NCBI GenBank assembly: GCA_049317285.1
Contig: JBMOIO010000001.1
Span: 20,388 to 84,387, forward strand
DNA length: 64,000 bases
Direction of reading: 5' to 3'
DNA from: Minisyncoccia bacterium
Lineage (GTDB): Bacteria; Patescibacteriota; Minisyncoccia; Phycocordibacterales; UBA9973
Shown piece by piece: positions 2,424-10,845 of this stretch. Each line of letters starts with the position of its first letter. Position 1 is the stretch's first letter. The notes under the pieces were generated by a model. The model saw nothing but the letters and a program-made list of their open reading frames with translations. It was not told the DNA's origin and searched no databases. A program made the position numbers and the translations under genes.

Positions 2424-3569
2424 ATGACTACAGAACACAACACAGAAGAAGAAGTTATCGCAGTTACTGCGGAAACTCCTGAAACAGAAAAAGAGGAGCG
2501 CGAAACTCCTCACCCTCGCCTTGAAGACCTCGTAGAAGGTCCAGTGATCGCAGTGGGTAAAGCCGCTGTATACATTGATCTTGCACCCTACGGTACTGGT
2601 ATCATCTACGGCCGCGAATTTATCGCAGTGCGCGACCTTATCAAAAAGACCAATGTTGGCGACATCATCAAGGCCAAGGTTGTCGAGATTGAAAACGCTG
2701 ACGGATATGTCGAACTTTCATTAAAAGAAGCAAAGCAGGCACTCCTTTGGAGCGAAGCGGAGCGCGCTATCAAGGATAAAACTATCTTCGACCTCGTAAT
2801 CAAGGAAGCAAACAAGGGTGGTCTTATCATTGACTGGCAGGGCGTGTCAGGATTTCTTCCTGCAAGCCAGCTGAAAGCTGAGCACTATCCTCGTGTAGAA
2901 GACTCTGACAAGGACAAAATCCTTCGCGAGCTCAAGAAACTCATCGGTACCAAGCTTGCGGTCTCTATGATTTCTGCAAATCCGAAAGACGGAAAGCTTA
3001 TCTTCTCTGAAAAGGAATCAAATCCTGAAGAGCGCCAGGAAGTGGTGAGCAAGTACGCAGTCGGCGACGAGATGGAGTGCGAAGTAACAGGAATTGTTGA
3101 CTTCGGCGTATTCCTCAAGATCGAAGACGGTCTCGAAGGATTGGTACACATCTCTGAACTCGACTGGGGACTCGTGGAAGACCCACGAAGCATGTTCAAG
3201 CTCAAAGATAAAGTAAAAGCTAAGATTATCGATATCAAGGACGGGAAAATTTCACTCTCTATCAAAGCACTCAAAGACAACCCATGGAATGCATTTGCCG
3301 GAACACTCAAGAAAGGCGATGTAGTCAAAGGTGTAGTGATCAAGTACAACAAGCACGGTGCACTCGTTTCTATCAAGGAAGGAGTAGCGGGACTTGTACA
3401 CCACTCAACCTTTGGCTCAGATGAAAAGCTTCGCGAAGCGCTTCAGCTCGGACGAATGTACCCATTCACTGTCACTCTCTTTGAACCAAAGGAACAGCGT
3501 ATGACGCTTGTTGCCGGAGAGCAAAAGATTGAGGACGCTCCTGCTCCAGAAGAAGCAAAAGCGGAATAA
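2424..3569 (+). CDS. rpsA: 30S ribosomal protein S1-like (multiple S1 domains)
   Basis: Repeated S1-domain signatures (GxV..I...G.FV, GLVHISEL, GLVHHS); acidic N-terminus; start taken at ATG 2424 (MTTEHNT); long upstream leader of about 190 nt. Confidence 0.8.
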   Translation: MTTEHNTEEEVIAVTAETPETEKEERETPHPRLEDLVEGPVIAVGKAAVYIDLAPYGTGIIYGREFIAVRDLIKKTNVGDIIKAKVVEIENADGYVELSLKEAKQALLWSEAERAIKDKTIFDLVIKEANKGGLIIDWQGVSGFLPASQLKAEHYPRVEDSDKDKILRELKKLIGTKLAVSMISANPKDGKLIFSEKESNPEERQEVVSKYAVGDEMECEVTGIVDFGVFLKIEDGLEGLVHISELDWGLVEDPRSMFKLKDKVKAKIIDIKDGKISLSIKALKDNPWNAFAGTLKKGDVVKGVVIKYNKHGALVSIKEGVAGLVHHSTFGSDEKLREALQLGRMYPFTVTLFEPKEQRMTLVAGEQKIEDAPAPEEAKAE

Positions 3570-3585
3570 CATCCAGAGTATATGA

Positions 3586-3619
3586 AAAAGCCCAAACGAA
3601 TTCGTTCGGGCTTTTTTGT
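3586..3619 (+). terminator. rho-independent terminator after rpsA
   Basis: aaagcccaaacgaa/ttcgttcgggctt stem followed by a T-run. Confidence 0.6.
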
Positions 3620-3629
3620 TTGATTCTTT

Positions 3630-3884
3630 TTACCTTACTGTACGGCATTGTTGAATAAATGCGGCAAGATTGATTTTAAAAATACGCGCCATATGTCCTA
3701 ATATATTTATATCAGGAACATATGAACCATTTTTAATACGCTCTACAATATCTTCCGAAAGACTCAATTGAGAAGAGAGTGATTCGTTGGATATTTTTTT
3801 ACTTTCACAATAATCAGAGACTACTCTGCCGGTAATGTAGGGAATTAAAAATGAATGATCAGTAATTACAGTTTGTTTTCCCAT
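3630..3884 (-). CDS. small HTH (XRE-like) protein in an AT-rich patch
   Basis: 84 aa; C-terminal SQLSLSEDIVERIKNGSYVPDINILGHMARIFKINL resembles an XRE helix-turn-helix; local GC clearly below flanks. Confidence 0.35.
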   Translation of the reverse strand: MGKQTVITDHSFLIPYITGRVVSDYCESKKISNESLSSQLSLSEDIVERIKNGSYVPDINILGHMARIFKINLAAFIQQCRTVR

Positions 3885-6936: not shown

Positions 6937-7776
6937 ATGAAAAACATCGCATTCTTTGGAACACCAGACTTTACCACTGACTTTCTCGAAGTACTTACGG
7001 CACACGACCTCACGCCAGCACTTATTGTCACCAACCCCGACCGCGCGGCAGGCCGCGGAATGACGCTCACTGCCCCAAAACCTAAAGTATGGGCACACGA
7101 GCACAATGTGAAAGTCATTCAGCCTGAACGAATTGACGACGCAGTGCTCACCGAACTTGCACAGACACCATGGGACTTGTTCGTTGTCGTTGCATACGGA
7201 AAGATTCTCCCTGAAGCACTCATCTCTATGCCGAAATACGGCACCATAAATGTGCACTACTCGCTGCTTCCGAACTATCGCGGTGCAACCCCTGTCGAAT
7301 CTGCCATTTTACATGGTGATGACACTACTGGTGTCTGTATACAGCAAATGCGCTACAAGCTCGATTCAGGCCCGATTATTGCCACAGAAGAGGTAGTGAT
7401 AGATCCAGCTGATACAACCCTTACACTGCGCGCACGCCTCAATGACAAGGCATTAGAGCTGCTTCCTATAACGATAGAAAAGATTTTTGAAGGAACTATA
7501 ACAATGAAGGAACAGGATGAGGCACAGGCGACCCACTCTGGCAAAATCAGCAAGTCCGATGGCGAGATACAACTCTCGGATGACAGTGTCTTAAACGACA
7601 GAAAATTTCGCGCACATGCGGGCAATGTGGGGACGTATTTTTTTATACAAAAAGAAGGAAAAAGTATTCGCGTCAAAGTGACACGCGCTCACTTACATGA
7701 AAATAACTTCGTCATCGACGAAGTTATTCCTGAAAACGGCAAGCCTACTTCATACGAAATTTTTATAAAAGGCTAA
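6937..7776 (+). CDS. fmt: methionyl-tRNA formyltransferase
   Basis: MKNIAFFGTPDF...NVHYSLLPNYRGATPVESAIL; immediately follows def (classic def-fmt pair). Confidence 0.9.
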   Translation: MKNIAFFGTPDFTTDFLEVLTAHDLTPALIVTNPDRAAGRGMTLTAPKPKVWAHEHNVKVIQPERIDDAVLTELAQTPWDLFVVVAYGKILPEALISMPKYGTINVHYSLLPNYRGATPVESAILHGDDTTGVCIQQMRYKLDSGPIIATEEVVIDPADTTLTLRARLNDKALELLPITIEKIFEGTITMKEQDEAQATHSGKISKSDGEIQLSDDSVLNDRKFRAHAGNVGTYFFIQKEGKSIRVKVTRAHLHENNFVIDEVIPENGKPTSYEIFIKG

Positions 7777-8267
7777 TTCGCAATAGCATAGTTTTTTCCG
7801 TATCTGGGATAGGTTCCATTACCACCGGTGCCATTGCATGTTGTTTGAATATAGGCGATATCTGCAGACGAAGGGTTGTTTAATGTTGCGGACAAGGAAA
7901 AATACTGTTGCCCAAAAGCATTGGCGCAAATGTAGAGCATATAGTTTGCTTCGTTCACAAAGCCGGTACCGAGATATCCTTCTTCTGCAAGTTTGGTCGT
8001 TATTGCTTTTGGATACGACGCTCCGTCTGCATACGTTACCCACCCTGCACCCATATCCATATACCCTGACCCTACCGCAGCGTATGTTCCGTATGTATCA
8101 TAATACAACTCAAGCGCTGTCGCGATCTGCTTAAGTTCTGATTTTATTTTCGCATCAGCGCCTTTTTTGCGGGCACTGTTAAGTGACGCAAGAACAACAC
8201 TCGCCAAAATGCCGATCACTGCGATCACGACAAGGAGCTCAATCAATGTGAATCCTTTTTGCTTCAT
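7773..8267 (-). CDS. type IV pilin / pseudopilin-like protein (prepilin N-terminal cleavage-methylation domain)
   Basis: MKQKGFTLIELLVVIAVIGILASVVLASL N-terminus (GFTLIE motif). Confidence 0.8.
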   Translation of the reverse strand: MKQKGFTLIELLVVIAVIGILASVVLASLNSARKKGADAKIKSELKQIATALELYYDTYGTYAAVGSGYMDMGAGWVTYADGASYPKAITTKLAEEGYLGTGFVNEANYMLYICANAFGQQYFSLSATLNNPSSADIAYIQTTCNGTGGNGTYPRYGKNYAIAN

Positions 8268-10053: not shown

Positions 10054-10116
10054 TTTATCAGATGATAAAAATACTGTGCTCCCCCGGTAGGATTCGAACC
10101 TACGACCAATTGCTTA

Positions 10117-10673
10117 CATTTATTCTCGCATTACTGCGGGCATGGACTATATCATCACCCGTTTCCATATTCATGGAAGTGTGGGTGCGAAGCGCTTCCG
10201 CCGACATCTGTCGGAGTACTCCACAAGGGATAGTCTCTGAACCTTCCCTTCAATTTCTTTCAGGGCTTGGCTGCTGATTGCCCTCATGAGTGAGGGGTTC
10301 CAGTCAATTCACTTCGTTATTCGACCCGTCTTTCGATCGGGAAGCTGCGTAATACCGTCGTGGATTTCCATATGACAGTTCGCACACAAGAGAATACATT
10401 TCTCTATTTCCATTTTAATCCTTTCCCAAGAACGGGTAAGTCCTTTGTCAGAGACACCGAAACTTTTCTGTTCTGGGTCAAGATGGTGAAATGAAAGTGC
10501 GCGACCGCATTTGTTATATCCACAAATCTCACATCGTCCGCCCTTATATTCGCGTGCCATAACACGAAGTTTGATTCTTCGTTTCTTTACGGCTTCGCGC
10601 ATATAGGCAGCTCGATCGGCATAGGTACGGGTTTCTGGCATACTCAATATAGTATACCATCGACTACCTTTCC
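10117..10673 (-). mobile_element. group I intron (self-splicing, homing-endonuclease-bearing) inside tRNA-Asn
   Basis: Contains the conserved P7 elements: R-like GGTTCAGAGACTA (compare Tetrahymena GUUCACAGACUA) and S-like GATATAGTCC (compare AAGAUAUAGUC). Terminal G immediately before exon2. Encodes an HNH ORF. Confidence 0.75.
10309..10647 (-). CDS. HNH homing endonuclease (intron-encoded)
   Basis: 112 aa; CEICGYNKCGRALSFHHLDPEQK...CANCHMEIH = HNH motif with flanking Cys pairs; lies wholly inside the tRNA-Asn intron. Confidence 0.8.
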   Translation of the reverse strand: MSMPETRTYADRAAYMREAVKKRRIKLRVMAREYKGGRCEICGYNKCGRALSFHHLDPEQKSFGVSDKGLTRSWERIKMEIEKCILLCANCHMEIHDGITQLPDRKTGRITK

Positions 10674-10845
10674 ACAGGCAACTGCGCTACCGCTGCGCCA
10701 CAGGGGAACACAATATTCTATTATCAAATGACCGGAAAACTATAGCATTTTACTTCCCTTTTTTCAATATTCAGCTATTTCTACCCCACCCCTCTTTTAT
10801 AAAGACCTATCATTTCATCTAGTATCCTTAAAAATAAAAAGTCCT

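Follow-up and report, generated by a model that had tools for sequence, protein, structure and literature searches.

What kind of gene is it whose two halves lie on one strand on either side of an open reading frame (ORF), and how did this reading frame come to be there? The question is raised by positions 10079-10707, read on the minus strand, of a 64-kb stretch of contig JBMOIO010000001.1 from a Minisyncoccia bacterium. This whole stretch is called the window below, and coordinates are positions in it. An earlier reading made from the letters (the sequence-only reading) had seen here a tRNA-Asn(GUU) gene split by a group I intron which carries an HNH homing endonuclease. We now consider it very probable that a Paceibacteria-type bacterium (Patescibacteria, or Candidate Phyla Radiation) has its tRNA-Asn(GUU) gene here, that this gene is interrupted between nucleotides 35 and 36 by a group I intron of IA type, and that the gene of an HNH homing endonuclease is lodged in the loop of the first helix (P1) of this intron.

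The split tRNA-Asn gene and its intron

The 5' exon (10707-10674, minus strand) consists of 34 nt, TCCCCTGTGGCGCAGCGGTAGCGCAGTTGCCTGT, which are nucleotides 1-35 in the standard numbering. The 3' exon (10116-10079, minus strand) consists of 38 nt, TAAGCAATTGGTCGTAGGTTCGAATCCTACCGGGGGAG; it begins with UAAGC, runs from U36 to the discriminator G73 and does not encode CCA. Joined and submitted to ARAGORN, the two exons give a 72-nt tRNA-Asn(gtt) with a regular cloverleaf, and all the arms listed in the sequence-only reading are present. When introns are allowed, ARAGORN finds the split gene directly, as tRNA-Asn(gtt) i(35,557), while with its default settings it misses the gene and its sole call in the window is a tRNA-Ser. 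The same program, introns allowed, finds no other tRNA-Asn gene within the 64-kb window. Between the exons lies the intron (10673-10117, minus strand; 557 nt), which starts directly after a U and ends in G as had been claimed: the U is U35, that is, U-1 of the 5' splice site, and the G is omegaG (10117), the final nucleotide of the intron, placed from the sequence and from the tRNA call. The Rfam model RF00028 (Intron_gpI) matches 10415-10124 of the minus strand over its full length (model positions 1-253) with 71.6 bits (E 3e-16), above its gathering score of 50; the three homologous loci that were checked (L001, L004 and L005) score 69-76 bits. The two elements proposed for helix P7 are both there, GGTTCAGAGACTA at 10243-10231 and GATATAGTCC at 10153-10144. 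Hence, with such a score, the insert is indeed a group I intron.

Can such an arrangement be due to chance? More than 4,800 clusters are homologous to the HNH protein (best identity 88%), with source names that include Nomurabacteria, Kaiserbacteria and Paceibacterota, and a genome scan showed that a relative is encoded in at least 222 species-representative genomes (best identity 92%). We kept 80 loci from this 222-genome scan, nearly all of them from Patescibacteria-type metagenome-assembled genomes (MAGs). Besides the window, tRNA-Asn(GUU) is split at 35/36 in 79 of the 86 loci which were fetched, according to our own exon finder, and the other seven mostly end at a contig edge. Every homologue of the ORF which could be scored lies in or beside a tRNA-Asn split at 35/36. 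This recurrence of the same split gene at loci with a homologue of the ORF rules out chance. The nearest loci belong to MAGs labelled Nomurabacteria or Paceibacterota. One locus with the HNH-bearing split tRNA-Asn known from Patescibacteria (L058, JAMPXW010000003.1) comes from a MAG labelled Burkholderiales bacterium; wrong binning is a more probable reason for this than an occurrence in another phylum.

Introns of this kind have been published. Among 95 complete Patescibacteria genomes, Nakagawa et al. (mSystems 2026, PMC13011429) found group I introns at 35/36 in 15 tRNA-Asn(GUU) and three tRNA-Asp(GUC) genes and assigned them to subgroup IA; four of the tRNA-Asn introns, each longer than 500 bp, encode HNH (PF01844) endonucleases, and the same paper counts an endonuclease gene in 12 of 333 bacterial tRNA introns. 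Precise self-splicing in vitro was obtained there for one tRNA-Asn and one tRNA-Asp intron. The tRNA-Asn one is the endonuclease-less intron of GCA_016700035.1, for which sequencing of the products placed the excision at 35/36. The insertion site at our locus had been described as lying outside the four classic bacterial ones, which stands; it is not a new site, since it was characterised by Nakagawa et al., who credit tFind (Williams 2020 preprint) with having catalogued the 35/36 type before. The classic introns are found at 34/35 in tRNA-Leu UAA (cyanobacteria), at 33/34 in tRNA-fMet and at 36/37 in tRNA-Arg, and are mostly of subgroup IC3. The intron of the window, in contrast, is at 35/36, possesses helices P7.1 and P7.2, belongs to a kind published as IA and not IC, and contains an endonuclease gene.

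With the Patescibacteria tRNA-Asn family the window shares the host tRNA, the 35/36 site, U-1, omegaG, the core sequence, the helices and the IA-type features. Its intron aligns over the full length with 10 published introns, with shared blocks GTGAATTG, GCAGCCAAG, AAGGTTCAGAGACTA and GATATAGTCC, and its HNH ORF is homologous to those of GCA_023898525.1, GCA_016699425.1, GCA_001029735.1 and GCA_000503835.1 and stands in the same place. In both cases the gene is missed or mislabelled by standard tRNA finders. The window sequence has no match among the sequences listed in PMC13011429, and its genome is outside the 95 of that survey; judged from these comparisons, the locus is a further member of the published kind of intron and not a rediscovery of a listed locus. 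What is added here is a covariation-backed structure with the ORF in the P1 loop (L1), evidence on the selection and transfer of the endonuclease, a putative promoter with a hairpin, and free-standing copies of the gene. PMC13011429 does not discuss three of these features: that the ORF overlaps P1', P2 and P3, that a -10-like motif forms part of a hairpin, and that the gene also occurs free-standing.

We drew the catalytic core, P3 to P9 (10316-10125; all helices are on the minus strand), on the window and tested it by covariation in an alignment, A2. The 85 rows of A2 are distinct intron cores, each taken from the guide sequence through to omegaG; one is that of the window, 74 come from fetched loci and 10 from published introns, among which is the one spliced in vitro (GCA_016700035.1). 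The core is made of P3 (10316-10310 with 10194-10188), P4-P5 (10306-10272), P6/P6a (10271-10241), P7 (10237-10231 with 10149-10144), P7.1 (10230-10220), P7.2 (10214-10201), P8 (10187-10156) and P9 (10140-10125). It is preceded by P2 (10341-10325), the hairpin CCCGAUC-GAAA-GACGGG with a GNRA loop, in which six of six pairs show compensatory changes among the 85 sequences. Standard pairs occupy 90.9% of the cells of A2; sliding the 3' partners by 1-3 columns lowers this to 34-46%. In 41 of the 55 pairs both sides have changed, and none of 500 shuffles reaches the observed values. P7 is uninformative in this respect because it is invariant. Covariation supports P7.1 and P7.2, placed between P7 and P3'; their presence is consistent with the published IA assignment, and we call the intron IA-like.

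Where, then, is P1? Its 5' strand is the terminal CUGU of the 5' exon (10677-10674), which pairs with the internal guide sequence GCAG (10348-10345, minus strand), with a G.U pair at the splice site. In the endonuclease-less homologues, including the one spliced in vitro, GCAG comes 4-30 nt past the splice site and immediately precedes P2 on its 5' side. In the window it is likewise directly 5' of P2, but it is 328 nt downstream of the 5' splice site. This means that the ORF is an insertion in the loop of P1. A proximal P1, made by CUGU with GUAG (intron nt 7-10), would leave the ORF between P1 and P2; this candidate is ruled out by the position of GCAG directly 5' of P2 in the endonuclease-less homologues. 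The universality of GCAG is partly obtained by construction, since the selection of the cores required GCAGC.

These elements suggest the following course of events. The pre-tRNA would be transcribed from a promoter upstream of the gene, and its intron would fold so that C32-U35 (CUGU) and the guide GCAG 328 nt downstream form P1, stacked on the anticodon stem, with P2-P9 as the catalytic core. A free guanosine would attack after U35, and omegaG would then direct the ligation to U36, which would release a normal 72-nt tRNA. Guanosine-dependent self-splicing of this kind was shown in vitro for the endonuclease-less tRNA-Asn intron of GCA_016700035.1 (PMC13011429).

The endonuclease and the probable transfer of the intron

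The HNH ORF (10647-10309, minus strand) lies in L1 and encodes 112 aa from a TTG, or 110 aa from the ATG at 10641. The frame is open throughout, as had been proposed, and contains the motif CxxC...FHH...CANCHMEIH; the HNH families of PHROG match it with E 4e-29. The four cysteines (CxxC…CxxC) and the H-N-H residues are invariant among 23 homologues. In an AlphaFold model (mean pLDDT 79), the protein has a long N-terminal helix, and strands 51-55 and 84-88 together with helix 89-96 make up the HNH core. A Foldseek search against PDB gave weak matches (E >= 0.13), at the top of which stand Cap5, a Geobacter HNH nicking endonuclease, the HNH domain of Cas9 and T4 endonuclease VII, all of them HNH nucleases. 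A sequence search of PDB gave marginal ones (the HNH domain of a group II maturase with E 0.02, and McrA). As the matches to PDB folds are only weak, the protein has no close relative of solved structure.

The ORF runs on beyond the loop, through the guide sequence, P2 and J2/3, and its stop codon TGA (10311-10309) is in the P3 5' strand and J3/4. Its conserved C-terminal residues TQLP are encoded by ACG CAG CTT CCC, which are at the same time the guide sequence and the P2 5' strand, GCAG lying within the Thr-Gln codons. The free-standing copies of the HNH gene, to which we return below, have another C-terminal end (…KIPKK…). Such a difference is expected if the RNA, and not the protein, imposes TQLP. 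We also considered an insertion sequence (IS) element or an IStron as the source of the ORF. There is no transposase or TnpB-like ORF in or adjoining the intron, and the ORF family is tied to tRNA-Asn at every scored locus; the candidate was rejected, and the ORF belongs with the intron, as the sequence-only reading had it.

We compared the window with its nearest relatives, using for the endonuclease the 96 codons outside the tail constrained by the RNA and, as a reference, two neighbouring host genes, those of pyruvate kinase and of an S30AE-family protein. Over 11 relatives, the amino-acid identity is 79-93% for the endonuclease, 60-79% for pyruvate kinase and 54-62% for S30AE. The nonsynonymous divergence (dN) is 0.04-0.14, 0.17-0.34 and 0.30-0.41, respectively. 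The synonymous divergence (dS) is 0.7-1.3 for the endonuclease and saturated for the two host genes. The dN/dS ratio of the endonuclease, about 0.04-0.17, indicates that its gene is under purifying selection. At four-fold sites, over eight relatives, the identity is 63% for the endonuclease (169/269), 31% for pyruvate kinase (277/882) and 35% for S30AE (83/236), where 25-32% is expected at random. Hence the endonuclease copies probably have a more recent common ancestor than the genomes which surround them.

Are there empty sites for such an element? We scanned metagenomes for the uninterrupted junction with 26 bases of the anticodon arm, allowing its two commonest stem variants, and obtained at least 120 loci. 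At least 108 uninterrupted tRNA-Asn(GUU) genes have the identical 26-bp anticodon arm, some of them with flanking genes related to those of the window, and no HNH homologue is near any of the 108 among the matches listed. Two loci can be set against each other. The pyruvate kinase of L021 is 66% identical to that of the window and its intron is 86% identical, whereas L133, with a pyruvate kinase 67% identical, has an uninterrupted tRNA-Asn. The state of the intron is not predicted here by the divergence of the host.

It might be thought that the intron is real but immobile and vertically inherited, its HNH gene having been kept for another role, such as help in splicing, or having simply not yet decayed. 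Most bacterial tRNA introns have no endonuclease gene, the horizontal transfer of tRNA introns was judged limited in the published survey, and, as complete genomes usually have no tRNA-Asn copy other than the split gene, the intron is hard to lose (PMC13011429). We regard this explanation as improbable. The purifying selection on the ORF is strong, and saturation is seen at the synonymous sites of the flanking host genes but not at its own. Of two hosts whose pyruvate kinases are about equally distant from that of the window, one has an 86%-identical intron and the other an uninterrupted gene, and free-standing copies of the gene exist, which cannot act as parts of an intron. These data favour a recent horizontal spread by homing, and they suggest that the endonuclease-bearing form is under selection and younger than the host lineages. 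The endonuclease would nick or cut an uninterrupted tRNA-Asn gene, and repair from an intron-bearing copy would transfer the intron together with the gene; this is what the protein family and the evolutionary pattern point to. The sequence-only reading had supposed an actively mobile intron from its intact ORF. Recent mobility is now indicated, indirectly and in evolutionary terms, by the purifying selection, by synonymous sites which are not saturated, by the patchy presence of the element and by the many empty sites.

Putative expression signals and free-standing copies of the gene

How can a protein be made from the loop of a ribozyme which has to fold? In the P1 loop, just upstream of the endonuclease gene, there is an extended -10-like element, TGGTATACT (10659-10651, minus strand), which we take as a putative promoter of this gene on account of its conservation: TGGTATA(C/A)T precedes the ORF in 55 of the 64 endonuclease copies which could be scored. 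The start codon, which is conserved, lies 6 nt past the motif in 26 copies and at a distance of 9-10 nt in 14; the window has an in-frame TTG 3 nt past TGGTATACT and the ATG 9 nt past it. We found no consistent Shine-Dalgarno sequence across the copies scored. Together with the spacing, this fits a leaderless or nearly leaderless messenger RNA (mRNA).

The same nucleotides take part in a hairpin, UGGUAUACU-AUAUUG-AGUAUGCCA (10659-10636, minus strand), with a centroid fold at -11 kcal/mol. Its 5' arm is the -10-like motif and its 3' arm, with consensus TAT[G/A]CC, contains or abuts the start codon. In the window, the 3' arm contains the AUG (10641-10639) and the loop contains the alternative UUG (10647-10645). 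Of 67 distinct homologous introns, 62 have here a stem of 6 bp or more without a mismatch, and a few, such as L072 and L012, show compensatory changes in it. The conservation of the 3' arm is not driven by coding, as this arm is read in a different frame from member to member.

On these grounds, the endonuclease gene may be a separate module with its own promoter of extended -10 type (TGGTATACT) and a nearly leaderless mRNA. In the pre-tRNA transcript, which has the 5' arm of the hairpin, TGGTATACT would pair with the region of the start codon and keep ribosomes out of the ribozyme. The 5' arm would be missing from a transcript begun at the internal promoter. In this respect, the regulation of the endonuclease appears, from its sequence signals, to resemble that of the intron endonucleases of phage T4. 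For I-TevI, I-TevII, I-TevIII and mobE of T-even phages, a hairpin formed only on read-through limits the entry of ribosomes into the intron core (PMC2988022), and these genes have the same combination of an internal promoter and a hairpin masking the translation start on read-through. Unlike the phage case, the host here is a cellular tRNA gene, and what the hairpin covers is not a ribosome-binding site but the start codon of a message that appears to have no leader.

Intact HNH homologues also occur outside tRNA-Asn, as free-standing genes, at nine loci (L035, L036, L038, L041, L048, L051, L053, L054 and L060). They are about 10-135 bp away from the tRNA-Asn gene, in either orientation, and the 3' end of the one at L036 overlaps the tRNA gene by about 12 bp. 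At L051, for example, the HNH ORF is at about 3001-3327 and the tRNA-Asn at 3337-3643. The 35/36 introns of these nine loci are 216-317 nt long and have no ORF. Among the eight free-standing copies which were scored for it, seven keep TGGTATA(C/A)T and the eighth has TGGTATATT. The TGGTATACT-type motif and its distance to the start codon are thus preserved in free-standing genes, which suggests that the motif goes with the endonuclease cassette rather than with the ribozyme.

In collaborative, or trans, homing, the site at which an endonuclease-less intron inserts is the target of an endonuclease whose gene stands free, as described for T4 mobE (PMC2790892; for the concept, PMC2988022). The nine loci, though not the window itself, likewise pair a free-standing HNH gene with an ORF-less 35/36 intron, and by their arrangement they look like a precursor or partner state of the mobile intron. 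We propose, tentatively and with somewhat less than even confidence, that the HNH gene is an autonomous cassette, made of an extended -10 promoter, a leaderless start and a hairpin which masks this start on read-through, and able to stand free or to sit in the P1 loop. If so, a phage-like route of collaborative homing would exist in a cellular lineage, and the composite element would still be spreading horizontally among Paceibacteria. This spread would contradict the published view of a limited transfer of tRNA introns, and the family would show how a plain ribozyme becomes a mobile intron.

Points against, other explanations and surroundings

Several points weigh against the interpretation given so far. 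P1 has 4 bp in the window (6 bp in the spliced homologue) and is invariant, because the anticodon loop is invariant, so that it is beyond the support of covariation. P10 is not supported, as AUUAC, 5' of GCAG, is out of register with UAAGC, and nothing is conserved at this place across the family. Of the two helices expected to fold around the junctions, P1 (CUGU/GCAG, 4 bp) is thus found and P10 is not. In tRNA introns P10 is dispensable, the exons being aligned by the anticodon stem. Concerning the protein, the Pfam HNH family PF01844 gives 20.9 bits, 0.5 below its curated cut-off of 21.4. The proposed search with HNH profiles therefore succeeds with PHROG and falls short with Pfam, and the HNH assignment rests on the motif, on PHROG and on the fold. 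The -10-like motif and the hairpin overlap, so that their conservation is not assignable to one function. The low dS of the endonuclease, which comes from 96 codons, could partly reflect a constraint on the RNA instead of transfer. Finally, a second, uninterrupted tRNA-Asn gene may be present beyond the visible 64 kb.

The last point brings up the case of a dead tRNA gene with a decaying intron, a functional tRNA-Asn being encoded elsewhere in the genome; the window is indeed only 64 kb of it. We think this very unlikely, as the core helices and the conserved junction sequences are all intact, the exons make a perfect cloverleaf and published complete genomes typically have no tRNA-Asn gene besides the split one (PMC13011429). 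Moreover, the gene is flanked by signals of its own. Upstream, a consensus scan found a promoter-like site (10767-10739, minus strand; 10/12 matches), TTGAAA-17-TATAGT with TG before the -10, which is a putative promoter of the pre-tRNA. Downstream is a terminator-like hairpin, AAAAAACACC-ATTAC-GGTGTTTTTT (10052-10028, minus strand), read from the sequence and absent from the list of the consensus scan.

With introns allowed, ARAGORN mislabels related loci (L005, L024, L030 and others) as Thr(tgt/cgt) i33, His(gtg) or Glu, because the junction is shifted, an artefact which is also met in PMC13011429. The weakest alternative of all, that the host is a tRNA-Thr(UGU) with an intron at 33/34, can draw on 26 related loci called tRNA-Thr(tgt) i33 in this way and on the like labels given by published tools, tFind among them, to the introns described in PMC13011429, and we give it next to no weight, as ARAGORN itself gives Asn at 35 for the window, a junction at 33/34 would make the intron end in A and not G and would break P1, GCAG being unable to pair with the bases before U33, the exons have discriminator G and resemble uninterrupted tRNA-Asn genes, and the spliced products sequenced in vitro were excised at 35/36 (PMC13011429).

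For a tRNA-Asn(GUU) gene split by an IA-like intron with an HNH gene in its P1 loop, the practical consequence is that this genome would seem to be without tRNA-Asn, and would be scored as less complete, because standard tRNA finders miss the split gene; PMC13011429 agrees on this. Taken alone, the locus is one more case of a described family and changes little. The endonuclease-bearing form appears to be common, a relative being present in several thousand protein clusters besides the species-level genomes counted above. The family is a convenient natural system for studying how an endonuclease and a ribozyme are combined, and what allows an intron to stay in a tRNA gene which is essential and present once in a minimal genome.

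Downstream of the tRNA gene, on the same strand, are the genes of pyruvate kinase and of the S30AE-family protein and a pilin-like ORF. In L001-L003, the nearest relatives, pyruvate kinase and S30AE also adjoin tRNA-Asn, with an orientation inverted relative to the tRNA gene. This inverted order means that the neighbourhood has been rearranged around a conserved intron.

Two minor observations concern other parts of the window. No 23S or 5S ribosomal RNA (rRNA) gene was found above threshold in the 64 kb, and the rRNA genes hence appear unlinked. The 16S rRNA gene (31885-33563, minus strand) has 1679 nt, compared with the 1533 positions of its model, and contains an insertion of about 60 nt near model position 80. 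The pilin-like ORF (7773-8267, minus strand), directly after the S30AE-family gene and pyruvate kinase, has an N-terminus of type IV pilin kind (GFTLIELLVVIAVIGILA).

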